From Candidatus Micrarchaeota archaeon (GTDB lineage: Archaea > Micrarchaeota > Micrarchaeia > Anstonellales > Bilamarchaeaceae), in NCBI GenBank assembly GCA_023129075.1, contig JAGMCT010000023.1:811-64810 (forward strand): a stretch of DNA of 64,000 nucleotides. The letters are read 5' to 3'. Both the position numbers and the translations under genes were made by a program. This document shows positions 6,849 to 29,986 of this stretch, one piece after another (position 1 is the first letter of the stretch; the number at the start of each line of letters is the position of its first letter). The notes under the pieces were generated by a model. It saw nothing but the letters and a program-made list of their open reading frames with translations, was not told the DNA's origin and did no database searches.

Positions 6849-7007
6849 ATGTCTAACGTTTATGAAAAAGTAAACAATGTATGGAAATCTACCTGTAAGA
6901 TATTATTCAGGCAGGAAATAGGAGATGGATTTCCAGGCACGGTTAAGGGTTTCATCTACTTCTTTTTGCATATACAGAGATTAGGAATAAAGGGTTTTAA
7001 TCCTTAG
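6849..7007 (+). pseudogene. N-terminal remnant of the A/B paralog family (decayed copy)
   Basis: Translation MSNVYEKVNNVWKSTCKILFRQEIGDGF matches the conserved family N-terminus (YEKVNNVWKSTCRIIFGEEIGEL) for ~25 aa, then diverges and stops after 52 codons. Confidence 0.6.
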
Positions 7008-8784
7008 TCTTTTTTGGTTTTTCTTTTTCTGAGATTACTTCTTCTGGTTCCTTTACACGTTTCTTTCTCCAGTGCTTAAGGTCCACAGTTTTTACCTTCA
7101 TGGGGATGGTATATCGCTCGCCATCAAAAAATCTGGCAACGCATTCCCTAACTTTAAGATTAGTAAAGATGTTCTTTTTCTCTTCCTCAAGCTCGGAGGG
7201 GGCGATTTTCTTCCTAAAGAACTCCTCAACCTTCATGTCCATGATAGAACTGATATAACCTGCATCCTGCTTGCTCAGGCGGAATGCAACTACATTGTAA
7301 ACATTCGTAAGAATACTATCAAGGATTTCCTTTTGTATCTGCCCTAAATACTGAAGAGAAAGACAGAGAGAAAGATTGAACTTTCTGGTTTCAGAGAGAA
7401 TGTCCTTTACAACAAGGGTTTCAACAACCGGAAACTCATCAATAATAAGAATCGTGGGCTGATTGAGTTTGTGGGTAATTGCAAAGATATACATCTGCTG
7501 AATGATGGCTCCTGCAAGGAACTTAATCATTCTTCTGCCGAAGAAATGGGGGTCAAAGGAAATTATAGTAACGTCGTTTTTCTCTATAAGATCCATAAGA
7601 CGAACAACGTTCTTGTCCTTTCCTATATAAAGCTCATATTCGCTGACAAAGTTAAGGATTGGCAGAACAGCATCGTTGAAATGATGCAGATAGATATCAT
7701 CAAACTCAACGCTGAAGAACCTTTTTACTTCGTCGTTTTCAACCATACTGGCAAATTCCATCCTTTTTGAGGAATCAGTAAGCAATAGGTTTATGTTTTC
7801 CAGGCTTAGCATATTTAGTTCTGAAAGCAGATAAACTGCATAGAAGAGGATTCGCTCAGAATACTTATTCTGTTCTCCTATGACGGAAATCATTAGCTGG
7901 ACAATGAGCTGGGTAGTCATAGGGTTCTTTTCCCTTCCTATCTCAAGCGGCTCAATATAATCATTCTTAAAGTCTACAACCTTTCCTTCAATAAGCTTGG
8001 ATAATTCATTGTGGGGGTCTATAATCACAATTTTCTGACCCTTGTGCTTGGCTGAGATTGCCTTCACAAGCATTTCAAGAAGCTTGCTCTTTCCTGTTCC
8101 TGACATGCCAACGAACAAAGAATGCTTGAATACGTCAAAGTTCTCCACTCCTATTGTAGAACCATCAATCTCAAACAGGGGTTTTTCCGAATGCATGTGC
8201 ATGGTTTTCAGGAGAGGGTGGTCCAGCATCTCCATAAAAAAGGAGGGGTTCTTCTCTAAATCAATCTCAAAGAATTTCTCTGGATTGAGAAGAAATACTG
8301 ATTTTCTCCACCCATCCTCGTTAACTGCACTCCCCCATCCAAAAAGCTTTCCAAAGATAGGAAACGTGCGTATATTCAACTGTGTGATGCGCTGTTTTAC
8401 GAGGAAATCAAAAATGTTTAAATCCTTGAAGATATACAAACCAAACGGGATTCCTCCTTTTTTTATCTCATCAGTGTGTTTGCTCTCCCCTATGGGTCTG
8501 AATGGAAATATCAATGAACCGAGCTTCTTGAGTCTATCGTAGTCTCCTTTCAGAAACACCCTTACAGTATTTGCCTTTTTAAGAAAGACCATTTCAGTAG
8601 CTCTGAAGGGGAAAACAAGGCTGAAATCAAGAAAATCAAAACCAGGAACATCCCATTTAAGGAGAGTAGTGAGGAAACGGTTCCAATCGTTTATGGATAC
8701 CTTTGGGGAATAGAGGGAAAGTTCTATGGGGTTATCTTTTTTCCAGTTAAACATTTGTATCCACTTTCTAACATTCTTTTTCAC
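6997..8784 (-). CDS. P-loop ATPase of the FtsK/HerA superfamily (HerA/VirB4-like, DUF87-type)
   Basis: 595 aa; Walker A GMSGTGKSKLL at ~aa 228 and Walker B ILIIDEFP at ~aa 445, separated by a long insertion as in HerA; N-terminal ~220-aa domain. Same strand and immediately downstream of the split A|B pair. Confidence 0.6.
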   Translation of the reverse strand: MKKNVRKWIQMFNWKKDNPIELSLYSPKVSINDWNRFLTTLLKWDVPGFDFLDFSLVFPFRATEMVFLKKANTVRVFLKGDYDRLKKLGSLIFPFRPIGESKHTDEIKKGGIPFGLYIFKDLNIFDFLVKQRITQLNIRTFPIFGKLFGWGSAVNEDGWRKSVFLLNPEKFFEIDLEKNPSFFMEMLDHPLLKTMHMHSEKPLFEIDGSTIGVENFDVFKHSLFVGMSGTGKSKLLEMLVKAISAKHKGQKIVIIDPHNELSKLIEGKVVDFKNDYIEPLEIGREKNPMTTQLIVQLMISVIGEQNKYSERILFYAVYLLSELNMLSLENINLLLTDSSKRMEFASMVENDEVKRFFSVEFDDIYLHHFNDAVLPILNFVSEYELYIGKDKNVVRLMDLIEKNDVTIISFDPHFFGRRMIKFLAGAIIQQMYIFAITHKLNQPTILIIDEFPVVETLVVKDILSETRKFNLSLCLSLQYLGQIQKEILDSILTNVYNVVAFRLSKQDAGYISSIMDMKVEEFFRKKIAPSELEEEKKNIFTNLKVRECVARFFDGERYTIPMKVKTVDLKHWRKKRVKEPEEVISEKEKPKKTKD

Positions 8785-8849
8785 TTATAATAAGGAGTAA
8801 GAATGTTTTTAAATATATGCTTATTTACATAGAAAAACATAAAAAACAC

Positions 8850-9623
8850 CTATACCGTCTGTTCACTGCTGGTATTGAATATATCCGTCTCAAAACCCCC
8901 TTTCTTTTCCAAGGACTTTATTATGCCATCAACAAGAATCTTTCGCACCCTTTGGTAAGCGTCCCTTCCTACTTCAACGTTTCCAACGGCATATTTGAGA
9001 TTTTTTGCGTTGGAACAAAATAAGGCATCATGTACATTTTCACAGTTATGGCAGAAGTAAGCATTGGTGCTGTCTTTAACAGAATCGCATTCAAATGCAA
9101 CAGTTGCACGTACGCAATTATAGCAGTTGATGCAGAACTTTGAATAGAAAACCCGGAATGAACCGAATATGAATTCTGAGTATTTGGTGTATGAACTATA
9201 TGCTATATTCTTTGAGTTGAATGCATCGTTTGCTCTGTATGTGTTTACAGTATCCTCAAGCCCCATGGTTTCAGTATTATTCTTGTTCTTTCCAACCTGC
9301 ACATCTACATTGAAATAAGCAATTTCAGGGATTTCCTGCAGAAGTTCGTTGAGGGTCATGTTTTCCTTCAGTTCCTTGATCTTTATCTCACTTGCCTTTG
9401 TTTCTCCTTCGTAAAAGGAAACGATTTTCTCTTTTGGTATGAGCTCAAGGAATCTGTACTGCTTTATTAAACGGATATTTTCTCCGGTGAGTTTTGTTTT
9501 TATGTTTTCCCCCTCTCCAATATGTTGTCTCAGCCATCCCTCATATTCATCTAAAGGAGTGAGTTCTTTTCCGAATAGAAGTTTTGTTGTAGTTGAGAGG
9601 GCATTTTCTACTTCTTGATTCAT
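8850..9623 (-). CDS. paralog family protein, single B-type module
   Basis: 257 aa. N-terminal motif ALSTTTKLLFGKELTPLDEYEGWL; C-terminal Cys-rich block CINCYNCVRATVAFECDS...YFCHNCENVHDALFCSNAKNLKYAVGN. Overlaps the upstream A-module gene by 4 bp. Confidence 0.7.
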   Translation of the reverse strand: MNQEVENALSTTTKLLFGKELTPLDEYEGWLRQHIGEGENIKTKLTGENIRLIKQYRFLELIPKEKIVSFYEGETKASEIKIKELKENMTLNELLQEIPEIAYFNVDVQVGKNKNNTETMGLEDTVNTYRANDAFNSKNIAYSSYTKYSEFIFGSFRVFYSKFCINCYNCVRATVAFECDSVKDSTNAYFCHNCENVHDALFCSNAKNLKYAVGNVEVGRDAYQRVRKILVDGIIKSLEKKGGFETDIFNTSSEQTV

Positions 9624-10375
9624 GGTTGAACCCCCTTGGCTATTTTAAATATTGTTGGAAATGACTTTTTCTTCTGCATTATCTCTGCCACTTCTTCCAA
9701 AAGCTTTTCCTTTAAGGAAAGGTATTTCTCTCTTTGGAGCTCTATGTTCCCTATCATATGTTGTTTATTCTTCTGATTAAATGAAAATAGGCACTCCCTG
9801 CAGTTACCCATATGCCAGCTGAAGTACAAGTCCGATGAGGAATTTGAATAACCTGTCTGGAAAAGCCTTGTTGACCTATAATTATGGTACCCCCTTATTA
9901 TTGAATTTGTAAAGGCCGAATAGGTTGAACCAAATATGAATTTTGAACTTAGTAAGATGTTAGAATATGCTGCATACTGAGAATCATAAATAGCATTTGA
10001 TTCAAATACAAAACCAGCATCCATAGACCCATCCGATGCATTAACTTCTATGCACCTCCCAAGATTTTTGTCTCCGCAGTAGAAAAAAGTATCCTTTATG
10101 CAATCAAGCAGGGAATCAATATCTTTTATGGCATTTATATCGAGGGTCGGCTTCTTGAGTCTTTCCAATTCCGCATAAGAAATAAATCTTCCTTCTTTAG
10201 GATATTCAGAATAGTACAAGTAGATGTCTTTTCCCGAGATTGAGGAGGTTCTTTTTGTAATGGGTTCTGCTGTGGACGTTAGATATGTTTTGAACTCCTC
10301 CAGACTTCCGAGCTCTTGTTTGAATAAAGTTCTGCACGTTGAGCGAAATGCAGAATCCAATTTCTGGTTGAACAT
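9620..10375 (-). CDS. paralog family protein, single A-type module
   Basis: 251 aa with the A-module motifs FRSTCRTLFKQELGSLEEFKTYL, SGKDIY, IKDIDSLLD, YAAYSN, SSSDLYFSWHMGNCRECLFSFNQKNKQHMIGNIEL and KLLEEV. Confidence 0.7.
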   Translation of the reverse strand: MFNQKLDSAFRSTCRTLFKQELGSLEEFKTYLTSTAEPITKRTSSISGKDIYLYYSEYPKEGRFISYAELERLKKPTLDINAIKDIDSLLDCIKDTFFYCGDKNLGRCIEVNASDGSMDAGFVFESNAIYDSQYAAYSNILLSSKFIFGSTYSAFTNSIIRGYHNYRSTRLFQTGYSNSSSDLYFSWHMGNCRECLFSFNQKNKQHMIGNIELQREKYLSLKEKLLEEVAEIMQKKKSFPTIFKIAKGVQP

Positions 10376-10499
10376 ATATTAAAAGTGTGCTTAATCAGTA
10401 TTTATATTAAAGTAGTTCAGTAACTGGACTAAAAACTAGGGATTGTTTAGAGTATCATGCTGAACAGAGATATTTAAACCTAGATGGGAAAAAAGAACC

Positions 10500-12080
10500 A
10501 TGCAGAATTCTATTGCATACAATAAGATAAACGAAGCCTGGAAGGATTCCTGCAGGGTTATCTTTGGAAAAGAATTGGGGGATTTGAAGGAATACAAGGA
10601 ATGGCTTTCCATGGACATGGAATCCATGAATACAAAAAAATCAATGGTTTCAGGTAAAGATGTTTGCTGCGCAGTTCCCCATTATTGCGAGGGTGCCAAA
10701 TTTATCTCTCTGGATGAGGTGGACTTTAACAAAAGGTTTGAGCCGTTGAATATAAATGAGATAAAGGACATAGATTCTATTGTTGAAGCATTACAAGAGA
10801 GGTTTTATTATACTGGAAATGTTATACTGGCAAATTCAAGGTTTGTTGAGGAAAGCTCCAACATCTCCAATTCATTCTACATGTTTCATTCAAACTATGC
10901 ATCTGACTCAAAATATGCTGCATATTCATCATATCTTAGGTATTCAAAGTGCATGTTTGGTGTGAATGAAGATGCTCTGTCTTCCTTCGTAATAAGGGGG
11001 TTTGACCTTCACAGGGTGAGTAGAGGTTTTGAGGTGTGGAGAACATTTAGCTCAAATGATTGTTATTATACATATGGAGTGGAGGACTGCAACAATGTCT
11101 TATTTTCATTCAATACAAAGAGCAAGAAATACGTTATTGGAAATCTTGAATTAAGCAGAGAAAAATTCGCATCTCTCAAAAAGAAGTTGTTGGGGGAAAT
11201 AATTGATGGGTTGGAAGGAAAAAAAACGGCTCCTTCCCTAATGGATTTTATTCCAAAAGACCTGGAAAAAACCAGAGCTCCGAAAGTAGAAACCAGAATA
11301 ATGAAAAAAGATGAGAACAAGGAATTGATAGAAGAGGCGTTCAGAAGAACAACAAAGATTGTTTTTGGAAAAGAACTCACAGAGATTGATAGATATGGAG
11401 AATGGCTGGCAGAGAACATGCCCGGAGTTACAACTGTTGAATCTGCTGTAAGCGAAAGCCCTGTTTACCTAGGCTTATATGTTCCTTATACTCACTTACC
11501 CAAAGAGAGGCTGGTCAAAGAAGCAGAAAGCAAAAAACTTGGGGAGATAGTGAAGTTAGAAGAAAGTGAAATAGGTTCAATAGAAGAAATAAAGAAATCC
11601 CTGCAGAAGATTGCGTTCTTTACCCCTGAAACCAGAATGGGAGATAATGCTAACCTGATTTACGCAGCAGTAGTTGCTAGATCAGTAAACTGCTATAAAG
11701 GGGCTCTTTTTGCTTACAATGAAAATTGTGCCTTCTCGTTCTGGTCCAGGAACTCTAAATATATGTTTGGGTCAGCTTTAGCATTTTCCTCTCATTCGTG
11801 CATTAGGTGTTACAATTCTCTGAATCTGTCAAGGTGTTTTGAGACGGATGGTTCAAGCAATTCCTCTGATTTGTATTTTTGTCATAATTGTGAGAACGTG
11901 CAGAATTCTATGTTTACTTTTAATACAAAGAACTTGAAGAATGCTATCGGGAATGCTCCTCTTTCCTTGGAGGATTATAAGAAGGTTAAAGGAAACTTAT
12001 TGGAGCAGATTATAGGTGAAATAGAAGAGAAGGGATCATTAAAATGGAGTATATATAATATTGGGTGTGAAAAAGATTAG
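10500..12080 (+). CDS. paralog family protein, fused A-B two-module form
   Basis: 526 aa. The N half matches the A module (AWKDSCRVIFGKELGDLKEYKEWL...CNNVLFSFNTKSKKYVIGNLEL) and the C half the B module (CIRCYNSLNLSRCFETDGSSNSSDLYFCHNCENVQNSMFTFNTKNLKNAIGNA...KWSIYNIGC). Confidence 0.75.
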   Translation: MQNSIAYNKINEAWKDSCRVIFGKELGDLKEYKEWLSMDMESMNTKKSMVSGKDVCCAVPHYCEGAKFISLDEVDFNKRFEPLNINEIKDIDSIVEALQERFYYTGNVILANSRFVEESSNISNSFYMFHSNYASDSKYAAYSSYLRYSKCMFGVNEDALSSFVIRGFDLHRVSRGFEVWRTFSSNDCYYTYGVEDCNNVLFSFNTKSKKYVIGNLELSREKFASLKKKLLGEIIDGLEGKKTAPSLMDFIPKDLEKTRAPKVETRIMKKDENKELIEEAFRRTTKIVFGKELTEIDRYGEWLAENMPGVTTVESAVSESPVYLGLYVPYTHLPKERLVKEAESKKLGEIVKLEESEIGSIEEIKKSLQKIAFFTPETRMGDNANLIYAAVVARSVNCYKGALFAYNENCAFSFWSRNSKYMFGSALAFSSHSCIRCYNSLNLSRCFETDGSSNSSDLYFCHNCENVQNSMFTFNTKNLKNAIGNAPLSLEDYKKVKGNLLEQIIGEIEEKGSLKWSIYNIGCEKD

Positions 12081-12124
12081 TCATCTGTAAACTTTAAATA
12101 TACAATTGTATAGTAATAGTATAC

Positions 12125-13696
12125 ATGGAAGAATCGCCTCTTTATGAAAAAGTGAATAACGTATGGAAATCTACTTGTAGAATAATATTTGGAGAAGAGA
12201 TAGGAGAGCTAAAGGAATATGAGAAATGGTTGTCAGAATACAGAGAACCTTTCCTAAAGAAAAAATCAGCAATCTCGGGAAAGGATGTTTATTGCTCAAA
12301 TACTCAATATTGTGGAGATGCAAAATTCATTTCCTTAAATGAGATAGATTTTAATAAAAAGTTTGAGCCTCTGAGTATAAATGAGGTAAAGGATATTGAT
12401 AGTATTGTTGAAGGGTTGCAGGAGAGATTTCATTACTGTGGGAATATAAAACTAGGGAATTCTCAATTTGTGGAGAGGAGTAGCAATGTGTTCAATTCAA
12501 ACTATGTCTCATCGTCAACTACAATATTTGATTCCAACTACATATCAAACTCAAGCAGGATAAGAGTTTCAAAAACCCTTTTTGGATGCTATTTCGTAGG
12601 AGAAAGTAATTCAAACATAAGAATTTATTCTGGGTGGAGACTAAGTCGTTCATTTGAAAGCTATGAAGCATGCGAAGGAAACGATGTTATTTATTCAGCA
12701 AACGTTGTTGGGTGTTCCGAGTGTATGTTTTCAATAGGACTAAGAGGAAAAAAGTACGTAATAGGAAACAGAGAACTAGAAAAAGATACATATGCGAAAA
12801 TAAAAGAGAAGCTCATAGGAGAAATAAAAGATGAATTAGAGAAAGAAAAAAGAATATTCTCATTCATAGACATAATAAAAACAGCTCAAGCAGACACAAT
12901 AAGTTCTAGCGAAGAAAAAAAAGGGATTGTTGATAAAGAAACAATAGAAAAAGCATATAGAAAAACACTTTCAGTCGTGCTGCAATGTAAGACTAGTAAG
13001 AATATTGACCACTATAAAAATTTTCTAATGAAAAATGTTCCGGAATACATAGAGAAAAGAAAAAGTACTATAAGCAATAGAGGGTTTTTCACAGTTGTAG
13101 AATCACTACATAAAAAACTACCTAAGGAAGTATTTGTAGAATTCAATGAGAGTCAGGAAATGGCTAAGAACAGAAAACTAAACAATGATGATATAAAAAA
13201 TCTTGAGAGTATAATAACCAACATCAAAAAAATAGCATTTATTAATTTTGACTACAGAGACAGTAGGTCAGAAAATATGATTGAAACTCCTTCCTATCAA
13301 AATTCAAAAAACGCTTATCATGTTGCATATGCATATGGAGTAAAAAACTCTGCTTTTTCTCAATGGCCACGAAACAGTGAATACATGTTCGGTACATCAG
13401 AAACACTCCACTCATTATTTTGTATTAATTGTTACTTCTCAAGAGATTTGGCAAGAGCATTTGAAGTTGATTCTTCAAGGAAATGTTCTGATGTTTACTA
13501 TTCTCATAACTGTGAAAATGTACATGATTCTATGTTCTGTTTTAATAAGAAAAACATAAGAAATGGAATAGGAAATGCTGAGTATGGGAAGGATGAATAT
13601 CTTAGAATAAAGAGTTCATTGTTGGAACAGATTGTAAATGAGCTTGAACAGAAGGAGAATTTAAAATGGAACATCTATAATATTGGTTGTGGCTAA
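12125..13696 (+). CDS. paralog family protein, fused A-B two-module form
   Basis: 523 aa with the same A-B architecture. The N-terminal ~110 aa are near-identical to the next gene; C-terminal motifs include CINCYFSRDLARAFEVDSSRKCSDVYYSHNCENVHDSMFCFNKKNIRNGIGNA and KWNIYNIGCG. Confidence 0.75.
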   Translation: MEESPLYEKVNNVWKSTCRIIFGEEIGELKEYEKWLSEYREPFLKKKSAISGKDVYCSNTQYCGDAKFISLNEIDFNKKFEPLSINEVKDIDSIVEGLQERFHYCGNIKLGNSQFVERSSNVFNSNYVSSSTTIFDSNYISNSSRIRVSKTLFGCYFVGESNSNIRIYSGWRLSRSFESYEACEGNDVIYSANVVGCSECMFSIGLRGKKYVIGNRELEKDTYAKIKEKLIGEIKDELEKEKRIFSFIDIIKTAQADTISSSEEKKGIVDKETIEKAYRKTLSVVLQCKTSKNIDHYKNFLMKNVPEYIEKRKSTISNRGFFTVVESLHKKLPKEVFVEFNESQEMAKNRKLNNDDIKNLESIITNIKKIAFINFDYRDSRSENMIETPSYQNSKNAYHVAYAYGVKNSAFSQWPRNSEYMFGTSETLHSLFCINCYFSRDLARAFEVDSSRKCSDVYYSHNCENVHDSMFCFNKKNIRNGIGNAEYGKDEYLRIKSSLLEQIVNELEQKENLKWNIYNIGCG

Positions 13697-15256
13697 ATGA
13701 CGACTAAAGTATATGAAAAGCTAAATAATGTATGGAAATCTACATGTAGAATTATATTCGGGGATGAGATAGGAGAACTAAAGGAATATGAGAAATGGCT
13801 ATCTGAATACAGAGAACCTTTCCTAAAGAAAAAATCAGCAATCTCGGGAAAGGATGTTTATTGTTCTACGCCTCATTATTGCGAGGGTGCCAAATTTGTT
13901 TCTTTGGATGAAGTGGACTTTAACAAAAAGTTTGAGCCTCTGAGTATAAATGAGGTAAAGGATATTGATAGTATTGTTGAGGGGTTGCAGGAGAGATTTT
14001 ACTACACAGGAAATGTAACACTACAAAATTCCAAGTTTGTTGAGGGAAGTTCAGATATTATTAATTCTCATTTTGTTCTGAATTCAAACTTTATTGCTGA
14101 TTCGCAATATATTGCTTATACGTCGGAAATCAGGTTTTCTAAGTATTTATTCGGCGTTAGTTGCTGTGCTTATTTCAACAATGTAATTAGAGGGACTGGT
14201 TTTAATACCTCAAATTCTTTGGAGAGCTGGTTAACGTGGGAGTCAAACGGTTGTTATTATACAATCAATGTGAGGGGTTGTACAGATATAATGTTTTCAT
14301 TTGGTTTAACCGGAAAGAGAAACATGATTGGGAATTTACAACTGTCAAAAGAAGAATATTATAAGACAAAAGAAAAATTATTAGAACAGCTAAGAGACGA
14401 ATTAATAAAAAATAAAAGATTGCCAGGAATTTTTGAACTTGCAATAGGTGAACCTCCTAAAGTTGAGGGAATAACAAGAGGAAATGTTGAAGAAACAGAT
14501 CTTGCACCAATAGAAAATGCATTCAAAACAACAACAAAAATGATCCTAGGAAAAGAACTAGAAAACATAGATAATTACAAAGATTGGTTATTGAGAAATA
14601 CTATAGGTGTCCAAGAGATCCCTTCAGCGATAACCGGAGAACCCACCTATCTTGAAGATCTTATACCTTACACTCTTGTTCCTAAGGATAGGGTAGTGAA
14701 TGATAAAGAATCGTTTAAAGCATCTGAGATACTTAAGATAAAAGAAGTAACAGAAGATTTGAGGGAATTAAAGGAAAGATTCGGACGAATAATTTTATAT
14801 CCTGTACAAACTGAAGGACAGGAGAATAAAAATGTTACAAAAACCGCGGCAACAAGAAATTGTGTGGATTGTTATTATGGTTCCATTTATATAGAAAACG
14901 AAAAGTGCGCTTATTCATTCTGGCCTAGGAATTCAAAATACATATTTGGTTCATCAATGGCCTTCTCATCAAATTCATGTGTTAATTGTTATTCATCTTC
15001 AAACATCTCTAGATGCTTTGAGGTGGATGGTTGTAGTAATTCTGCAGGCTTGTACTTCTCCCATAATTGTGAAAATGTACATGATTCAATGTTTACTTTT
15101 AATGCAAAGAATCTAAGGTACTCAATAGGAAACGCAACTTATTCTCCAGACCAATATAACAAAATAAAATATTCCATATTAGAACAGATAACGAATGAAT
15201 TAGAAGAGAGGAAGGACTTGAAATGGAATATCTATAATATTGGTTGTGGAAAATAA
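13697..15256 (+). CDS. paralog family protein, fused A-B two-module form (mosaic copy)
   Basis: 519 aa with A-B architecture. DNA stretches of 50+ nt are identical to the 12125 copy, and others nearly identical to the 10500 copy (e.g. cattattgcgagggtgccaaatt...gtggactttaacaaaa), indicating gene conversion. Confidence 0.75.
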   Translation: MTTKVYEKLNNVWKSTCRIIFGDEIGELKEYEKWLSEYREPFLKKKSAISGKDVYCSTPHYCEGAKFVSLDEVDFNKKFEPLSINEVKDIDSIVEGLQERFYYTGNVTLQNSKFVEGSSDIINSHFVLNSNFIADSQYIAYTSEIRFSKYLFGVSCCAYFNNVIRGTGFNTSNSLESWLTWESNGCYYTINVRGCTDIMFSFGLTGKRNMIGNLQLSKEEYYKTKEKLLEQLRDELIKNKRLPGIFELAIGEPPKVEGITRGNVEETDLAPIENAFKTTTKMILGKELENIDNYKDWLLRNTIGVQEIPSAITGEPTYLEDLIPYTLVPKDRVVNDKESFKASEILKIKEVTEDLRELKERFGRIILYPVQTEGQENKNVTKTAATRNCVDCYYGSIYIENEKCAYSFWPRNSKYIFGSSMAFSSNSCVNCYSSSNISRCFEVDGCSNSAGLYFSHNCENVHDSMFTFNAKNLRYSIGNATYSPDQYNKIKYSILEQITNELEERKDLKWNIYNIGCGK

Positions 15257-15259
15257 TAA

Positions 15260-16870
15260 TCACTTGCATCCAATATTGTAAATATCGTATTTTAAGGTTT
15301 TGTTCTTTTCCAATTCTGAGGAGATTTGCTCTAGTAAAGAGGACTTTATTTTTCTATATTCATCAGGAGAAAGTTTGGAATTGCCGATTGCATGCTTCAG
15401 ATTTTTTACATTGAAGCAGAACATTCCATCCTGAACTGCTTCGCAATTGTGAGAAAAGTAGATGTCTGAACAGTCCCTAGAGCTGTCAACCTCAAAACAT
15501 CTGGAAAGTTTGCTTGAATTATATACATTTATGCAAAATAAAGAGTCATGAACCGTATCAACACCAAACATATTCTCAGATCTTACCGGCCAAAAGGAAT
15601 ACCCGCAGTTTTTTGCACGTAGTGGCGCTCCACACCTATAACTGTTGCTTGAATAGCCCACCATCACACATTCTGGAATATTTGAGTTCTGCAATTTTAG
15701 TTCGGTAGAAACATATCCTATATCAGCGATTATATCATGTGCTTTCTCCAGCGAAAGATTATTTACGTCATTTTTATCCGCTTTAAGGTATTTGCCTGCC
15801 AATTGGCCTTCTTCTATACGAATTATCCTGTTATGCGGGAATTTGTCAAATACTGAATAATGTACAAGACCTGATTCCTTTCCTGAAATTACTGAGGGCA
15901 GTATCTCAATTGGTTTTACATGCCTGTACAGAAAATCTGAGTAATCCTCCATAGATCCGATCGGTCTGCCAAACACTACTTTGCAGGTATCCTCAAACTG
16001 GTCCTGTACAACTGAAATGTCAGTTTCAGGGTCATCATATTTAGTTTCTGCAGTAATCTTTGAAAATACATTCTTTAATTCATCAGATTTTACCCTGGAA
16101 TTGTACAGATAATCAAGCAATCCCAGGCATTTCCTATCCTTAACCAGTTTAGCTCTTATTTCTTCAAGCAAAGATTCCTTTATTTTCATGTATTGGGATT
16201 TTTCAAGTTCTAAATTGCCTATTGTGTATTTCTTATTCTTCAGATTAAATGAAAAAATACAATCCTGACAGCCGTTAATATTCATTACATAATAACAATC
16301 CGAACAGGTATGGCTTTCATAGAATTCAAAACAGCGACTGGACCATGTAGATTCCATCGCCATTATATTAAATTTGGATTCTCCTATTCCATTTCCCCCG
16401 AAAATTCTTTCGGAGGAACGCGCCATCTTGACATGGGCCATATAGATTGAATCAAGTATGTTGAGCGAATCCAGAATGAAACTTGAGTTATGTATATCCG
16501 AGCTGTCAGAAACGAATCTTGAGTTTCCAAGAATAATATTGCCCGCATACACAAATCTTTCCTGTAGTGATTCAACTAGAGAATCAATATCTTTTATTTC
16601 ATTTATGTTCAAAGGTTCAAATTTCCTGCTATAATCTATTTCGCCTAAATCCATGAATCTTGCTGAGGGGCAATAATCGCCCTGTGCCGGAAATACTGTT
16701 TTATTTGAAATATGTGATTTTTCAGACCTCATGGCACCCGGATATTCAGATAAGTAAGCTGAAAACTCATCTAATTCACCCACCTCACCTCTTAGGACAA
16801 TCCTGCAAGTGGATTTCCATTCCTTATTAAGAGAATTGTAAACTTCGGGGTTCATGGTTTTCCTCTGCAA
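15260..16870 (-). CDS. paralog family protein, fused A-B two-module form
   Basis: 536 aa with N motifs EWKSTCRIVLRGEVGELDEF and IKDIDSLVESLQERF, C motifs CINVYNSSKLSRCFEVDSSRDCSDIYFSHNCEAVQDGMFCFNVKNLKHAIGNS and KYDIYNIGCK. Co-oriented with the upstream methyltransferase-like gene. Confidence 0.75.
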   Translation of the reverse strand: MQRKTMNPEVYNSLNKEWKSTCRIVLRGEVGELDEFSAYLSEYPGAMRSEKSHISNKTVFPAQGDYCPSARFMDLGEIDYSRKFEPLNINEIKDIDSLVESLQERFVYAGNIILGNSRFVSDSSDIHNSSFILDSLNILDSIYMAHVKMARSSERIFGGNGIGESKFNIMAMESTWSSRCFEFYESHTCSDCYYVMNINGCQDCIFSFNLKNKKYTIGNLELEKSQYMKIKESLLEEIRAKLVKDRKCLGLLDYLYNSRVKSDELKNVFSKITAETKYDDPETDISVVQDQFEDTCKVVFGRPIGSMEDYSDFLYRHVKPIEILPSVISGKESGLVHYSVFDKFPHNRIIRIEEGQLAGKYLKADKNDVNNLSLEKAHDIIADIGYVSTELKLQNSNIPECVMVGYSSNSYRCGAPLRAKNCGYSFWPVRSENMFGVDTVHDSLFCINVYNSSKLSRCFEVDSSRDCSDIYFSHNCEAVQDGMFCFNVKNLKHAIGNSKLSPDEYRKIKSSLLEQISSELEKNKTLKYDIYNIGCK

Positions 16871-16936
16871 CCGATATTGTAAATATCATATTTTAAGGTC
16901 TTGTTTTTTTCTAATTCTATATGGGGGAACTGAATA

Positions 16937-17683
16937 TTAACCATTATTCTTTGCTACAAGAATTAATCTTTTGTTTTTTTGATGTTTCTTATCTGGTGAG
17001 TCAAACGTTTCTTTTTCTATTATTTTATATCCTATTTCTCTAATAGTTTTAAGTATTTCAGGTATGCTTTTAGGTCTTCTATCCGAAAAGAAAGCTGGCA
17101 GACCGTAATCAACAACATTATTAATGAAAATTAAACCATCTTTCTTGATAAATTCTTTAAGTACCATCAAAAATAGCTTGTAATCGATGTAATTAAGAAC
17201 ATGTGAAACAACAACAGAATCAAAAGAAATTTTCTTCAAATGCAATTTTTTGAAGGCTTTTTGTGTTTCCAATTTAAGTTTCAGGAAAGAATTTCCTTCA
17301 ATTTGATTTAAATCACAAAATATGGGGTAAACAGAATCTTTCTTATATTTGTTATTATGGTACTTCAAAACATGGTAATCATTTTCCCAGTAAAAAATTT
17401 GGGAATTAGGGAATTCTTCCGGAGTGACCAAAGGGTTAAAGAAAGGCCCAACTTCAAGAATAATATTCCCCATGTTTTTCCTATATTTTTTTAGAAATGG
17501 TGAAAGCATCTGGCTGCCAGTTATCATTCTTTTTCTTGCTTCAATATCAAAATCCCCTCCATGGGGATTCTCTTCTAACGGCCAACCAGGCCAGTTGTAA
17601 ATTTTGAAATCATCCATGGATAGAACTAAACAAATCTGATATATAAAAGTTTCGGGATATTGAAGAGAGTCAAGTGAAACCAA
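16937..17683 (-). CDS. class I SAM-methyltransferase-like protein with a degenerate motif I
   Basis: 248 aa. ILEVGPFFNP aligns with MTase motif I (hhDhGxGxG) but lacks the glycines; FDSVVVSHVLNYI matches the post-II/III acidic motif of class I MTases. Confidence 0.4.
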   Translation of the reverse strand: MVSLDSLQYPETFIYQICLVLSMDDFKIYNWPGWPLEENPHGGDFDIEARKRMITGSQMLSPFLKKYRKNMGNIILEVGPFFNPLVTPEEFPNSQIFYWENDYHVLKYHNNKYKKDSVYPIFCDLNQIEGNSFLKLKLETQKAFKKLHLKKISFDSVVVSHVLNYIDYKLFLMVLKEFIKKDGLIFINNVVDYGLPAFFSDRRPKSIPEILKTIREIGYKIIEKETFDSPDKKHQKNKRLILVAKNNG

Positions 17684-17726: not shown

Positions 17727-19598
17727 ATGAAAGAATTAATCATTCATGCAGATAAGGTTTCTTATGAAGTAACAAAGAAAACAGGGGTGGCCGAAGAAAT
17801 TCCAAAGGAGATGGAAAAGGGAGAAATGGAGGAAGTGCTCTGGCTGAGGATAGCAGTGGAAAAGGACGATGAGGGAAAAATAGAGAATTTAGTGAGGAAG
17901 GCAGTGGAGGATGTAAAAAAAGTGGCAGAACAAGTGAAAGTGAAGAATGTGATGATTTATCCTTATGCACATCTTTTGTTTGGGTCAAAACCTTCTGACC
18001 CGAAAACAGCCCTGAATCTTCTGAAGGGGATTGAAGAGGAGCTTAAGAAAGAAGGATTTGAAGTAATGAGGGCTCCTTTTGGGTGGTACAAAAAATTTAC
18101 TGTGGTTGCAAAGGGGCATCCTCTGAGTGAATTGTCAAGGGTTTTTCATGGAGAAGAAAGTGAAGAAAGGGATGAGGTTTCTGCATCAGTGAAAGCTGAG
18201 GAAGAGCTCAAGAGTAGATTTTATATATTAACCCCTGAGGGGGAGCTTGTGGAAGCTGAGAAATATGATTATAAAGGGCGAGAAGGGCTCAGGAAACTAA
18301 TGAGCTATGAGACTAAGAAAATGAGGGCGTATGAAAAAGAGCCGCCGCACATAAAAATCATGCAGGAACAGGAGCTTGTAGATTATGAGCCGGGAAGCGA
18401 TGCGGGAAATTTCAGGTTTTATCCAAAGGGAAGGCTGATAAAGAAATTATTGGAGGAATCAATAACAGACTTTTGTATAGATTTGGGGGCAATGGAGGTG
18501 GAGACCCCTTTGATGTATGATTTTGAACATCCTTCTCTGAAGAAGTATTTGAATAGGTTTCCTGCAAGACAGTATGTGGTGCTGAGCGAGGATAAGAGAT
18601 TCTTTCTGAGGTTTGCGGCATGTTTTGGGCAGTTTTTAATGAATCATGATATGGTAATGAGCTACAGGCACCTGCCCCTAAAAATGTATGAATTGGCAAG
18701 GTACTCTTTCAGAAGGGAGCAGACTGGGGAGCTCGCAGGGCTTAAGAGGCTTAGGGCGTTTACCATGCCGGATATGCATACTCTTGCAAGAGATATGGAG
18801 ATGGCAAAAAAAGAGTTTGAAAAACAGCTGGAAGCAGGAATAGAATGGCTGGGCGGAACCGGACTCTATGAAGGAATAGAAACCGCATTCAGGGTGCAGA
18901 GTGATTTTTACGAAGAGAATAAGGAATGGTATAGGGAAATGGTAAAAAAATTGGGAAAACCTGTGCTTGTTGAGTTGTTTGATGAGAGGTATGCTTATTT
19001 TATTACGAAATTTGAGTTTAATTTTATAGATACGATGGACAAAGCGAGTGCATTAACTACGGTGCAGATAGATGTAGAGAATGCAGAAACCTATGACATT
19101 AATTTTGTAGAGGAGAACGGAGAGAAGAAAAGGCCGTTGATATTGCATGCATCCATAAGCGGGGGCATAGAAAGGGTAATTTATGCACTTTTGGAAAACG
19201 AGGCAGGGAAGATGAAGAAAGGGAAAAAAGCGATGCTTCCTGTGTGGCTCTCCCCCACCCAAATAAGGGTAATTCCCATCTCAAGAAATCAGCTGGAGTA
19301 TGCAAAGAAGGTTGCTGAGGGGTTAAAGGAATTTAGGGTTGATGTGGATGATAGGGATGAGAGCTTGGGAAAAAGGATAAGGGCGGCTGAGAAAGAATGG
19401 ATTCCCTATGTGATTGTTGTTGGGGAGAAAGAAGAGAAAGAGAAAAAAATTGCTGTTACCATAAGAGAAACACAGAATAAAAAGGAGATGAATGTAGAAG
19501 AGATTGAAAAGGAAATAGCTGAAAAAACAAGAGATTTTCCAAAAACAAAACTTTCACTTCCTCAATTAATCTCAAAAAGACCAACATTCAGAGGTTGA
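17727..19598 (+). CDS. thrS: threonyl-tRNA synthetase (archaeal type with N-terminal editing domain)
   Basis: 623 aa; class II aaRS core motifs (FRREQTGE, RLRAFTMPDMH, HASISGGIERVIYALLE), a C-terminal anticodon-binding domain and an archaeal-type N-terminal domain. Confidence 0.85.
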   Translation: MKELIIHADKVSYEVTKKTGVAEEIPKEMEKGEMEEVLWLRIAVEKDDEGKIENLVRKAVEDVKKVAEQVKVKNVMIYPYAHLLFGSKPSDPKTALNLLKGIEEELKKEGFEVMRAPFGWYKKFTVVAKGHPLSELSRVFHGEESEERDEVSASVKAEEELKSRFYILTPEGELVEAEKYDYKGREGLRKLMSYETKKMRAYEKEPPHIKIMQEQELVDYEPGSDAGNFRFYPKGRLIKKLLEESITDFCIDLGAMEVETPLMYDFEHPSLKKYLNRFPARQYVVLSEDKRFFLRFAACFGQFLMNHDMVMSYRHLPLKMYELARYSFRREQTGELAGLKRLRAFTMPDMHTLARDMEMAKKEFEKQLEAGIEWLGGTGLYEGIETAFRVQSDFYEENKEWYREMVKKLGKPVLVELFDERYAYFITKFEFNFIDTMDKASALTTVQIDVENAETYDINFVEENGEKKRPLILHASISGGIERVIYALLENEAGKMKKGKKAMLPVWLSPTQIRVIPISRNQLEYAKKVAEGLKEFRVDVDDRDESLGKRIRAAEKEWIPYVIVVGEKEEKEKKIAVTIRETQNKKEMNVEEIEKEIAEKTRDFPKTKLSLPQLISKRPTFRG

Positions 19599-19632: not shown

Positions 19633-21165
19633 ATGGTTATGGAAAGAAAAGAAAGGGTGCTTACCAGACAGGTGCTCAAAAAGCAACCCAATATCTTCAA
19701 GAAAATAATCAAAAACAAAGGCGACCGACAGCATGGATTAGAGCTTAACAATATATTTCTTAATATCCTTGATGAAAACAAGATAACACAAGCAATGTTG
19801 AGAATACAAGCGCTTGCATTAGTACATCACATTGAAGAAAAAAACCTTGGCAGGATTATAACTAATTTTCAAAAAAGCCTTAATGATTCAGTAAAAAAGA
19901 CGTATTCAAAAGACATCCTTCAGCTTTGGAAGAATTATCAAGTCCTTAGAAAAATAGATGAAAATGAAGGGCCATTGGGTATATATAAAGAATTGCTGGA
20001 GAGTGTTGGGCCTATGGTTCTTATGACAAGAATAATGGATTTAAGCTCAAAAAAAATTATAAATCCGTACATTCCAAAACCTAAAAAACAATCTATTTTA
20101 GTTGAGCTTGCTAAGAGGATGCTTTACATTTACTCTCCTGTTGCAGAAATAATGCAGCTCCATATGCGTTCCGGGATAATTAAACATAAAGGAATTGAGG
20201 TATTATACTCGGAACAACTTGATGATGTAAGAGAGATTATTTCTGCAAAGGAATTTGAAATAAAAAAAACAATGAAAACATTCAAACAAAAAATCAATCT
20301 GACAATAGAAAAATATAATGAAGATAATGGAACAAAATTCATAATACCAAAAGACAGGGAATGCAGGATAAAAACGCCTGCAAGCATAGTTCTTAAGATG
20401 ATTGACAAAAAAATAGGGGATGTAGATAGCATCCTTGACCTTATTGCAATAACAATTGTTGAGAACAGCCAGATAGATGAAGAAGAGAAAATAAGGCACA
20501 TTTACAATCTTGAAAAAGAGATTAGTGTTGTTTTGATGGGAAATAAAACATGGCTCCTTGAAGAAGATGACCACATAAAAAATCCAAAGAATACAGGGTA
20601 TCAGGCTTTACACCAAAATTATAAAACATTGAATGGAATTGGTTTTGAGATACAGTACAAAACACTTAAGATGCATGAAAAGTCAGAGAGGGGAGACCCT
20701 TCTCAATTTCATGGAATTCACAAAAGCAACGGAAGAATAACAAAAAGGATTAGTAAAAATCTCAATGAATTCCTTGGCACTGTTGCAATGGCCAAAAATG
20801 AGGAGGAATTACTTGAAAGTTCATTAAAGGCAAGACATGCAAAAAAAACATACTCTTTAACTATCTATGAAAATGGAAAGAAAAGAATTGTCAAATTAAA
20901 ATTTTCATTTGACCCTCTTGTTGCAGATTTAGTAGCAGATTCTGTTGGATTCGAAAGAAAAGTTAATGTATATGGAAAAGAAACAGGTCTGCAATTGCCT
21001 TTTTTGAATAATGTAAAATCAGGTTCAGAAATAGAAATAATGGTAACAGACAGAAAATCTAATTATAGGAAAGAAACAATGAAATTAATATTAGCTAAAA
21101 CAAAAGATGAGAATACAGTTAAAAATATTAAATCTTATCTTAAATCTACTTCCAAAAAAGTATAG
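19633..21165 (+). CDS. RelA/SpoT-homolog (RSH) synthetase-domain protein with C-terminal TGS-like domain
   Basis: The RxKxxxSIxxK motif (RECRIKTPASIVLKM), the D-x-I-A motif (DLIAITIV) and the G-Y-Q-S-L-H...E-I-Q-I-R-T-like block (NTGYQALHQNYKTLNGIGFEIQYKTLKMHEKSERG...FHGIHK) match the (p)ppGpp synthetase domain. C-terminal VNVYGKETGLQLPFLNNVKSGSEIEIM is TGS-like. No intact HD motif is visible (ALALVHHIEE). Confidence 0.55.
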   Translation: MVMERKERVLTRQVLKKQPNIFKKIIKNKGDRQHGLELNNIFLNILDENKITQAMLRIQALALVHHIEEKNLGRIITNFQKSLNDSVKKTYSKDILQLWKNYQVLRKIDENEGPLGIYKELLESVGPMVLMTRIMDLSSKKIINPYIPKPKKQSILVELAKRMLYIYSPVAEIMQLHMRSGIIKHKGIEVLYSEQLDDVREIISAKEFEIKKTMKTFKQKINLTIEKYNEDNGTKFIIPKDRECRIKTPASIVLKMIDKKIGDVDSILDLIAITIVENSQIDEEEKIRHIYNLEKEISVVLMGNKTWLLEEDDHIKNPKNTGYQALHQNYKTLNGIGFEIQYKTLKMHEKSERGDPSQFHGIHKSNGRITKRISKNLNEFLGTVAMAKNEEELLESSLKARHAKKTYSLTIYENGKKRIVKLKFSFDPLVADLVADSVGFERKVNVYGKETGLQLPFLNNVKSGSEIEIMVTDRKSNYRKETMKLILAKTKDENTVKNIKSYLKSTSKKV

Positions 21166-28553: not shown

Positions 28554-28626
28554 TGAGCCCGGGAGGATTTGAACCCCCGATTCCCACCGTGTGAGGGTGG
28601 TGTCTTAACCGCTCGACTACGGGCTC
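28554..28626 (-). tRNA. tRNA-Val (anticodon CAC)
   Basis: Reverse complement GAGCCCGTAGTCGAGCGGTTAAGACACCACCCTCACACGGTGGGAATCGGGGGTTCAAATCCTCCCGGGCTC folds as a cloverleaf with anticodon loop CTCACAC. Confidence 0.85.
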
Positions 28627-28651
28627 TTTTTTATTTTTCTAAAAGTTTATA

Positions 28652-28724
28652 TAGCCCTGACCGGATTCGAACCGGTGTCAACGGATCCAGAGTCCATTAT
28701 CCTTGACCACTAGACTACAGGGCT
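28652..28724 (-). tRNA. tRNA-Gln (anticodon CTG)
   Basis: Reverse complement AGCCCTGTAGTCTAGTGGTCAAGGATAATGGACTCTGGATCCGTTGACACCGGTTCGAATCCGGTCAGGGCT with anticodon loop CTCTGGA. Its 5' end overlaps the stop codon of the HAD gene. Confidence 0.85.
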
Positions 28725-29281
28725 TTTTGGATGAAGTTCTTGTTTAATTCACCCGGTTTTATTTTAAATGTTTTTATGTTTGCATTCTTTCCTGCAAGCT
28801 CATCCCAGAATCCATCTCCCAAGAATATAGTGCTTTTTCTGGTTTCTCCTGCTTTTTGCATCAGGAGGTAAAGCATTTCAGGGTTTGGTTTGGGTCTTTG
28901 GACTGAATCCCTTCCTGCTATGAAATCAATTTTAATATTTTCCTTTTCAACGAATTCCCTTGCTGTTTGTTCGTTGTTGTTTGTTGCTATGGCTGTTTTA
29001 TGTCCTTTTTCTCTAAGGTATTCAAGCATCTCTTTTATTCCATTGTAAAGCTTGTAATTGCCTGAGTCCAGAGCGTTTTTTTCATGTCTTCCGAATATTC
29101 GGTTTATTTCTAATCTTGCTTCTTTGTCTTTCTCGGAGATTTCATTTGTAATTGTAACGAGGTGGGCCTTTGGGTCGCTGACTAAATGGCTGAATTTTTT
29201 CATTACCTCATTTTGCACTGCACCATACCAGTCTACTCCTAATTCAACCAGAGTGTGGTCTAAATCGAATATTAAAAGCAT
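28715..29281 (-). CDS. HAD-superfamily hydrolase (phosphatase)
   Basis: Start reassigned to MLLIFDLDHTLV (HAD motif I DxDxT); the 40-aa upstream extension in the ORF track overlaps the tRNA-Cys gene. The stop TAG lies inside the tRNA-Gln acceptor stem. Confidence 0.65.
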   Translation of the reverse strand: MLLIFDLDHTLVELGVDWYGAVQNEVMKKFSHLVSDPKAHLVTITNEISEKDKEARLEINRIFGRHEKNALDSGNYKLYNGIKEMLEYLREKGHKTAIATNNNEQTAREFVEKENIKIDFIAGRDSVQRPKPNPEMLYLLMQKAGETRKSTIFLGDGFWDELAGKNANIKTFKIKPGELNKNFIQKAL

Positions 29282-29282
29282 A

Positions 29283-29370
29283 AGCCAGGAAAGGGAATCG
29301 AACCCCTCTATGCTGGTTTCTTTCTCACTGGAGCTTGCAGCCAACCACATAGCCAATCTGTCATCCTGGC
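29283..29370 (-). tRNA. tRNA-Cys (anticodon GCA) with putative ~17-nt intron at 37/38
   Basis: Minus-strand GCCAGGATGACAGATTGGCTATGTGGTTGGCTGCAA[GCTCCAGTGAGAAAGAA]ACCAGCATAGAGGGGTTCGATTCCCTTTCCTGGCT. Acceptor GCCAGGA/TCCTGGC; T-arm AGGGG-TTCGATT-CCCTT; anticodon stem GTTGG/CCAGC; loop CTGCAA… The intron boundaries were not verified as BHB. Confidence 0.55.
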
Positions 29371-29512
29371 GAAGTTTCTCTGAGCCGGGAGCTATCGCCA
29401 AAGGCGATTCAATCCTGGCGAAGCCAAGAGCTATAACGCGGAGCGTTATTCAATCCTGGCGAAGTTTCTCTGAGCCGGGAGCTATCACCGAGGGTGATTC
29501 AATCCTGGCATT
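29371..29512 (-). repeat. three tandem tRNA-5'-end-like repeats (41-49 nt) upstream of tRNA-Cys
   Basis: Each unit is GCCAGGATTGAAT-[hairpin]-AGCTCCCGGCTCAGAGAAACTTC. The hairpins (ATCACC…GGTGAT, ATAACGC…GCGTTAT, ATCGCC…GGCGAT) differ by compensatory changes. Confidence 0.7.
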
Positions 29513-29540
29513 CAGTAACAATTAACATAGTGCATAACTT

Positions 29541-29558
29541 TTTAAATTGTTATATGAG
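29541..29558 (+). promoter_or_regulatory. putative archaeal TATA/BRE promoter of the 5S rRNA gene
   Basis: tttaaattgttatatgag lies ~20-30 nt upstream of the 5S 5' end. Confidence 0.3.
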
Positions 29559-29568
29559 TTAAAGTATG

Positions 29569-29688
29569 CTTGTCAGCGGTCATAGGAGAGGGGAAACACC
29601 CGTTCCCTTCCCGAACACGGAAGTTAAGCCTTCTCACGGTTTTGCAAGTACTGCCCTAAGGGTGGGAACACGGACTGCTGCTGACATC
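29569..29688 (+). rRNA. 5S ribosomal RNA
   Basis: Contains the universal 5S block CCCGAACACGGAAGTTAAGCC; the terminal helix TGTCAGC…GCTGACA closes the molecule at ~120 nt; A/T-rich TATA-like sequence ~25 nt upstream. Confidence 0.85.
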
Positions 29689-29733
29689 TTATACTCATTC
29701 TTTTAATTCTTTCTCTTAGATTAAAGTCTGCAT

Positions 29734-29817
29734 GCAGGGGTAGCCAAGCGGTCAACGGCGCCAGGTTCAGGGCCTGGTCTCTTAGTGAGTTCGAGGGTTC
29801 GAATCCCTTCCCCTGCA
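29734..29817 (+). tRNA. tRNA-Leu (anticodon CAG), class II
   Basis: GCAGGGGTAGCCAAGCGGTCAACGGCGCCAGGTTCAGGGCCTGGTCTCTTAGTGAGTTCGAGGGTTCGAATCCCTTCCCCTGCA; long D-loop and long variable arm; anticodon loop TTCAGGG. Confidence 0.85.
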
Positions 29818-29986
29818 TTTGTAAACCTATATGACGGGTCAGATTTTTACTTCGTAAATGCTCAAATTTCTGTAGAAATTTGGCACACCGTTTTTCAAGA
29901 GAAAAACAATGAATACTCTCGAAATCTCAGATTACCCTGCGGGTAATTCTCTCGGAAACCTTTGGTTTCCAAGACTTCGGATTTTA

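Follow-up and report, generated by a model that had tools for sequence, protein, structure and literature searches.

Ectopic gene conversion is known from examples such as the tuf genes, rRNA operons and archaeal chaperonin paralogs. In cassette-based antigenic and phase variation, as at Neisseria pilE/pilS and Borrelia vlsE, segmental conversion among clustered paralogs and truncated copies gives rise to mosaic genes. Concerted evolution in prokaryotes has been surveyed in general (Wang & Chen 2018, PMC6053082), and the closest described analogue of the locus reported here is the lpl cluster of Staphylococcus aureus, in which a conserved intragenic block mediates recombination (Tsuru & Kobayashi 2008, PMC2568036). 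Here we analysed a mosaic gene in a tandem array of paralogs from a Candidatus Micrarchaeota metagenome-assembled genome (MAG) of a DPANN archaeon whose genome is reduced. The array lies on a single MAG contig (JAGMCT010000023.1), of which we examined a stretch of 64,000 nucleotides (nt), called the window below. The paralog cluster occupies positions 8850-16870 in the order E2-E1 (- strand), A, B and C (+ strand) and D (- strand), accompanied by two relics (Table 1). The mosaic gene is C: in its 5' region, two B-like tracts are separated by a short A-like patch. The best explanation, to which we assign a probability of roughly 85%, is short-tract, non-reciprocal ectopic gene conversion among adjacent tandem paralogs.

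We compared the paralogs in a codon-based alignment, to which all positions given as alignment nt refer. The first B-like tract of C contains an exact run of 59 nt (C 13805-13863 = B 12236-12294), and at alignment nt 109-186 the identity of B and C is 0.94 compared with 0.42-0.60 in the other pairs. The A-like patch that follows includes an exact run of 24 nt (C 13874-13897 = A 10680-10703) and is ∼70% identical to B. In the second B-like tract there is an exact run of 56 nt (C 13925-13980 = B 12356-12411), and 68 of the 69 nt (99%) over alignment nt 250-318 (C 13931-13999) are the same in both genes. From alignment nt 319 to the end, the identity is 0.516 for B-C, 0.568 for A-C and 0.511 for A-B. 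The longest exact match between A and B anywhere is 12 nt. Altogether, ∼300 of 1560 nt (∼19% of the gene) are homogenised, solely among A, B and C, and no comparable tract is present in D or in the split copy E. The very start of the genes is outside this pattern, as B differs from C in the first ∼15-27 nt, and the 3' ends that lie upstream (that of A, preceding B, and that of B, preceding C) are only 66% identical.

A preliminary description of this DNA had reported that the copies starting at 12125 and 13697 share identical runs of more than 50 nt. Both quoted runs are present (a 54-mer at 12241 and 13810, and a 53-mer at 12359 and 13928) and extend to the 59 and 56 nt given above. Its statement that the 13697 copy then becomes nearly identical to the copy starting at 10500 was equally accurate, with a 23-mer at 10680 and 13874 and a 16-mer at 10719 and 13913, both within a patch that matches at 51 of 55 positions. 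Identity spread uniformly along the genes had been named beforehand as evidence against this reading, and we found it to be blockwise: blocks of 89-99% stand against values of 0.516-0.568 downstream. The gene conversion between tandem paralogs that had been proposed from this pattern is borne out by the synonymous-site identity, the permutation tests and the nearest neighbours, which switch beyond the 5' 300 nt, as described in the following.

As the N-terminal ∼106 amino acids (aa) are comparatively well conserved, we examined the silent sites. Among codons that specify the same amino acid in B and C, the identical codon was used in 37 of 48 at alignment nt 28-189 and in 22 of 23 at alignment nt 250-318. 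The resulting 59 of 71 compare with 77 of 160 outside the tracts (Fisher p = 5e-7). For A and C, identical codons made up 15 of 18 in the patch and 89 of 195 elsewhere (Fisher p = 0.0025). In the same codons, the pairs A-B, A-D, B-D and C-D were at background (∼40-50%). In the A/B/C triplet, the maximum chi-square breakpoint was at alignment nt 190 (permutation p < 1e-4), and the longest B-type run comprised 27 informative sites (permutation p < 1e-4). We also ran a GENECONV-style permutation over ten paralog pairs. It returned a B-C fragment at 31-315, with 160 of 195 polymorphic sites matching, and an A-C fragment at 190-256, with 41 of 47 matching (both p < 5e-4), while seven of the ten pairs gave nothing at this level and no conversion tract was detected in D. 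Weaker signals of the same kind, A-E at 865-917 and C-E at 741-914, lie at the conserved start of the second module of the protein, where B is aberrant, and conversion need not be invoked to explain them.

The protein sequences give the same picture. Over aa 10-106 the nearest pair is B-C, with an identity of 0.887 (2000 of 2000 bootstraps), whereas from aa 107 to the end it is A-C, with 0.481 versus 0.393 for B-C (1990 of 2000 bootstraps). The greater closeness of C to A than to B is clearest in the C-terminal module (0.50 versus 0.37). The tract and the rest of the gene are thus phylogenetically incongruent, and when trees of the family are built, the 5' 300 nt should be handled apart from the remaining gene.

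In the sequence of events that we propose, the backbone of C would be related to A. The first ∼300 nt of C, encoding an N-terminal alpha/beta head (aa ∼6-106), would have been exchanged with the neighbouring B by non-reciprocal homologous recombination, and a 55-nt segment within this 5' region would have been exchanged with A. At least two events would be required, one between B and C and one between A and C. The mismatches between B and C are spread unequally (12 of 81, or 15%, at alignment nt 28-108 and 1 of 69, or 1.4%, at alignment nt 250-318; p = 0.003), which suggests either several B-C events of different age or one event that was later overlaid. Alternatively, one repair event in which the template switched from B to A and back to B could have produced the pattern. 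Of the mismatches within the tracts, nearly all affect third codon positions, which indicates that the head domain has been under purifying selection since the exchange.

C would be the common partner in both exchanges, and therefore C is the most economical, and likely, recipient, although the reverse direction, with C as the donor to B and to A, is possible. We compared N-terminal-type similarity with gene-body similarity across 114 homologs, and this gave no signal for the direction of transfer (Spearman rho ∼0). By mean identity to the same homologs over residues 107 to the end (0.376 for B, 0.422 for A), the body of B is the most divergent copy. The 5' relic at 6850-6926 does not polarise the transfer either, as it matches C and B about equally (45 of 57 and 44 of 57 nt, respectively; A, 33 of 57).

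A, B and C are all full-length tandem open reading frames (ORFs) in unchanged gene order, the stop codon of B abutting the start of C. Since B and C are both intact and adjacent, non-crossover conversion is indicated rather than unequal crossover. In an AlphaFold2 model (predicted local distance difference test score 87, predicted template modelling score 0.88), the converted segment corresponds to the N-terminal alpha/beta head (aa ∼6-106) and is predicted to end at the start of the first beta-solenoid, which is also where the family has its most conserved block (aa 81-106). This block is where the paralogs keep enough nucleotide identity for strand exchange, and the tract ends coincide with the edges of such stretches, which are conserved enough among the paralogs for strand invasion.

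We weighed several other explanations of the mosaic. C could be a one-step hybrid formed by unequal crossing-over at the conserved block, with a B-type 5' part and an A-type 3' part, as in the lpl cluster. Such an event predicts two equally young halves, whereas identity to B in the 5' part is 89-99% and identity to A in the 3' part is 57%. Moreover, genes would be lost or doubled by a crossover between B and C, which would not yield a hybrid C next to an intact B, a further event would be needed to account for the A-like patch that interrupts the B-like sequence, and the upstream 3' ends of A and B have not been co-converted (66%), unlike in the lpl unit. The B-like region does have its 3' boundary at the nucleotide block with the strongest conservation, recombination at blocks of this kind is known for tandem paralog clusters (PMC2568036), and the relics are evidence of past deletions in the array. 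Nevertheless, we consider a crossing-over origin quite unlikely. If there had been no recombination at all, the 5' identity would have to stem from strong purifying selection on the conserved N-terminal domain together with codon bias. Indeed, few parts of the family are as well conserved as the N-terminal 106 aa, and above all aa 81-106, all paralog pairs climb to an identity of 0.7-0.8 near alignment nt 226-315, and in other arrays the paralogs often share exact runs of 20-36 nt within conserved blocks. However, the synonymous identity is confined to B-C (59/71) and, in the patch, to A-C (15/18), other pairs being at background, and alignment nt 109-186, at which B-C reaches 0.94, are poorly conserved in the other pairs (0.42-0.60). 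The contrast at synonymous sites largely refutes selection as the sole cause and makes it a highly improbable one.

The mosaic might also be an artefact of assembly or binning, produced for example by an assembler that switched between paralogs or strains at shared k-mers. Path switching reshuffles segments at shared k-mers and cannot create similarity, and the change from B to A at 13868-13873 takes place without a shared run that would enable it (at most 12 nt are identical between A and B). All ORFs are intact and in frame, and the tract mismatches are mostly at third positions, as in real evolved sequence. This makes an artefact very unlikely, even though the sequence comes from a MAG, its exact junction occurs in no other public assembly and the shared exact runs of 56-59 nt are longer than some assembler k-mer sizes. 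A functional element within the sequence, for instance a regulatory site or an RNA structure, could in principle fix the shared nucleotides in B and C; it was considered because the identity includes silent sites and has no direct support. Rfam gave no match in the array, the two tracts fold with z-scores of -1.6 and -0.2 into differing predicted structures, and the sequence is absent from the other paralogs, so that we regard such an element as extremely improbable. Some observations weigh against gene conversion as the explanation. The converted region coincides with the end of the protein that is better conserved, where at alignment nt 226-315 A-B and A-D reach 0.7-0.8 as well, so part of the elevated 5' identity is due to purifying selection on this end. 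Furthermore, no close relative of the genome was found, the best non-self match to C being 50% identical, and the exact 45-nt pattern at the junction from B to A was absent from genome and metagenome contig collections. As the junction is present in no independent assembly, the sequence rests on one MAG contig. A search for contigs encoding protein C likewise returned no record.

Next to the mosaic, we examined how the family evolves in other genomes. An exhaustive profile search yielded 346 clusters (at the 50% identity level) at E ≤ 1e-30 and 2016 at E ≤ 1e-3, and the named matches were almost all from Micrarchaeota. Comparison of the family with Pfam, NCBIfam, PADLOC and PDB gave no significant sequence or fold match, and a search of the literature on the family in Micrarchaeota found nothing relevant. 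The proteins are ∼525 aa long and contain an internal duplication of a ∼250-aa module and two predicted beta-solenoid modules. A conserved W(D/N)IYNIGC motif (encoded at 15230-15256 in C, for example) closes the sequence of almost all members and puts a cysteine 1-4 residues from the C-terminus. Neither a transmembrane segment nor a signal peptide at the N-terminus was found in any family member. Elsewhere, the arrays are also tandem, with 1-9 copies per locus and often with 4-nt overlaps between the genes.

Family loci in related genomes (L001, L002, L003, L004 and L006) were used for comparison. Between L001 and L002, only some copies have 1:1 orthologs (75-92% aa identity) and the order differs, which points to birth and death of copies. 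Orthologs in these two loci are more alike than paralogs within either genome, except in one 3' block. There, the L001 genes L1_3 and L1_5 are 0.91 identical over the 3' 120 nt, while the ortholog pairs are at 0.84 and 0.78 and the equivalent paralog pair of L002 is at 0.73. By the four-taxon criterion, a further conversion is visible in this block. In the two-copy arrays of L004 and L006 no conversion was seen, and orthologs exceeded within-genome paralogs everywhere. Homogenisation does not extend across the whole array: the window paralogs share 38-51% protein identity, and orthologs were more similar than paralogs in nearly all windows compared. Thus, the pattern is that of a diverging family whose copies are born and die and occasionally undergo short conversions, and not of sustained concerted evolution. 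The preliminary description had taken the patchwork as typical of concerted evolution, a claim that does not hold with ∼300 of 1560 nt homogenised among A, B and C alone.

It had also called the family diversifying, which the selection analysis does not bear out. The ratio of nonsynonymous to synonymous divergence (dN/dS) of ortholog pairs was 0.07-0.18, and in none of their 150-nt windows did the proportion of nonsynonymous differences (pN) exceed that of synonymous differences (pS). The window paralogs are saturated at silent sites outside the tracts (pS 0.6-0.9), which makes dN/dS among them unusable there. In the closely related genomes L004 and L006, the family members (8422-11578 and 8425-11578, respectively) share 63-72% protein identity with dN of 0.20-0.29, compared with 92% and dN 0.048 for the neighbouring HerA-like gene and 88% and dN 0.072 for a neighbouring HTH_10 regulator, so that the dN of the family is 4-6 times that of the adjacent genes. 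The family is therefore fast-evolving but under net purifying selection, and the ortholog dN/dS gives no support for positive selection.

The features of the array, with the tracts and the neighbouring ATPase, are collected in Table 1. The six genes counted in the preliminary description are six ORFs; they represent four full-length copies and one copy split into two ORFs, with two short relics in addition. Overall protein identity is 51% for A-C, 49% for B-C, 45% for A-B and 38-43% for D versus the others. Protein C is identical (100%) to NCBI entry KAW38_04870 from a Candidatus Micrarchaeota MAG, and B matches KAW38_04865. The split between E1 and E2 falls exactly in the linker between the modules, which shows that each ∼250-aa module can exist as a separate polypeptide, and the ATGA overlap of the two ORFs suggests translational coupling.

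Table 1. Coordinates of the paralogs, relics, homogenised segments and HerA-like ATPase genes
Feature	Coordinates	Strand	Remarks
Paralog A	10500-12080	+	526 aa, full-length; from ORF list and tblastn; pairs with C in a short internal patch
Paralog B	12125-13696	+	523 aa; pairs with C in two long 5' tracts
Paralog C, mosaic gene	13697-15256	+	519 aa; ATG immediately after the stop codon of B
Paralog D	15260-16870	-	∼531-536 aa; convergent with C
E1, N-terminal module of the fifth copy as its own ORF	9620-10375	-	TGA overlaps the ATG of E2 (ATGA at 9623-9620)
E2, C-terminal module of the split fifth copy	8850-9623	-	
5' relic, B/C type	6850-6926	+	beyond the HerA-like gene; forms a 52-codon ORF
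3' relic of a D-like copy	16866-16918	-	encodes ELEKNKTLKYDIYNIGC; directly upstream of the start of D
Tract 1, B-like	C 13712-13867 = B 12143-12298	+	alignment nt 28-186; 142/159 identical (89%)
A-like patch	C 13874-13928 = A 10680-10734	+	alignment nt 193-247; 51/55 identical (93%)
Tract 2, B-like	C 13925-13999 = B 12356-12430	+	alignment nt 244-318
HerA/FtsK-type ATPase (DUF87)	6997-8784	-	beside the array
HerA-like orthologs	L002 14988-17115; L004 11563-13500; L006 16140-18098		

The 3' relic is identical to the 3' end of D itself in 17 of 17 aa (∼89% nt identity), and it produces a spurious TTG start at 16870 for this gene; the start of D is probably the ATG at 16855. Both relics are remains of deleted copies and demonstrate recombination within the array. 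The 44-nt spacer between A and B is filled by an AT-rich imperfect palindrome at 12086-12125 (overlapping arms of 25 nt, 84% complementary), which may be a terminator or promoter element in an otherwise tightly packed array.

In four Micrarchaeota genomes (the window, L002/L003, L004 and L006), a HerA-like ATPase gene adjoins the family array or lies within ∼4.5 kb of it. The ATPases are orthologous across the four genomes, with 50-91% aa identity, and show weak similarity to CedD, to VirB4/TraD-type ATPases and to the PADLOC model mad8. This linkage suggests a functional connection between the ATPase and the array. A much bolder reading is that the two form a Micrarchaeota-specific system, in which interchangeable double-beta-solenoid subunits would dock through a common head to one partner, for example the ATPase, and in which conversion would be selected to keep the head uniform while the bodies diverge, possibly for interaction with a host archaeon. 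We regard this as unlikely. What the data show is that the array and the ATPase gene are linked, which fold the proteins adopt, that the family evolves faster and where the tract lies; any interaction and function are putative. Still, the family, which is large, fast-evolving and variable in copy number, and its linkage to the ATPase are the parts of the locus that might repay more work.

Several other genes of the window were recorded. A 248-aa ORF on the - strand (16937-17683), between D and the gene for an archaeal-type threonyl-tRNA synthetase (17727-19598), has sub-threshold similarity to class I S-adenosylmethionine-dependent methyltransferases (Methyltransf_11, E = 0.037). Methyltransferase genes also occur near the L004 and L006 arrays, and no homology of these to the 248-aa ORF was detectable by BLASTP. 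Directly downstream of the synthetase gene, 19633-21165 (+ strand) encodes a protein of 510 aa in which Pfam detects a RelA/SpoT nucleotidyltransferase domain (E = 3e-14); in archaea, RelA/SpoT-like proteins are uncommon. Finally, the region 28554-29818 carries a stand-alone 5S rRNA gene (29572-29686) flanked by genes for tRNA-Val, tRNA-Gln and two tRNA-Leu. As no 16S or 23S rRNA gene is present in the window beside it, the rRNA genes are unlinked, which is common in DPANN archaea.

How does the mosaic compare with the known systems? With the surveyed cases of prokaryotic ectopic conversion it has in common a short, non-reciprocally homogenised tract within one genome, blockwise identity at silent sites and incongruence. 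It differs in that ∼19% of the gene is homogenised while the rest is at 52-57% nt identity, and in being patchy and involving three genes; also, unlike in those cases, the window paralogs are not core members of dosage-balanced complexes. With the lpl cluster the array shares tandem diverged paralogs, a conserved intragenic nucleotide block as the site of recombination, incongruent histories of the 5' and 3' parts, variable copy number and rearrangement of the array. In lpl, however, the unit of evolution runs from the 3' end of one ORF across the intergenic spacer into the 5' end of the next and is formed by crossovers (PMC2568036), whereas here identity between the upstream 3' ends is 66%, B and C differ in their first ∼15-27 nt, the gene order is intact and the patches are short and internal. 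Short internal patches together with an intact order argue for conversion and not for an lpl-type crossover.

Mosaics formed by segmental conversion are likewise shared with pilE/pilS and vlsE, but the Micrarchaeota array has no architecture of expression site and silent cassettes, only two short relics. Moreover, here the conserved domain is converted and not the variable one, the proteins have no signal peptide or surface-anchor signature, and dN/dS is 0.07-0.18. Thus, compared with these systems, the mosaic of the window is a fresh example of a known, textbook process in an uncharacterised and unannotated Micrarchaeota family, and it documents mosaicism by homologous recombination inside a tandem array of a reduced-genome DPANN archaeon.

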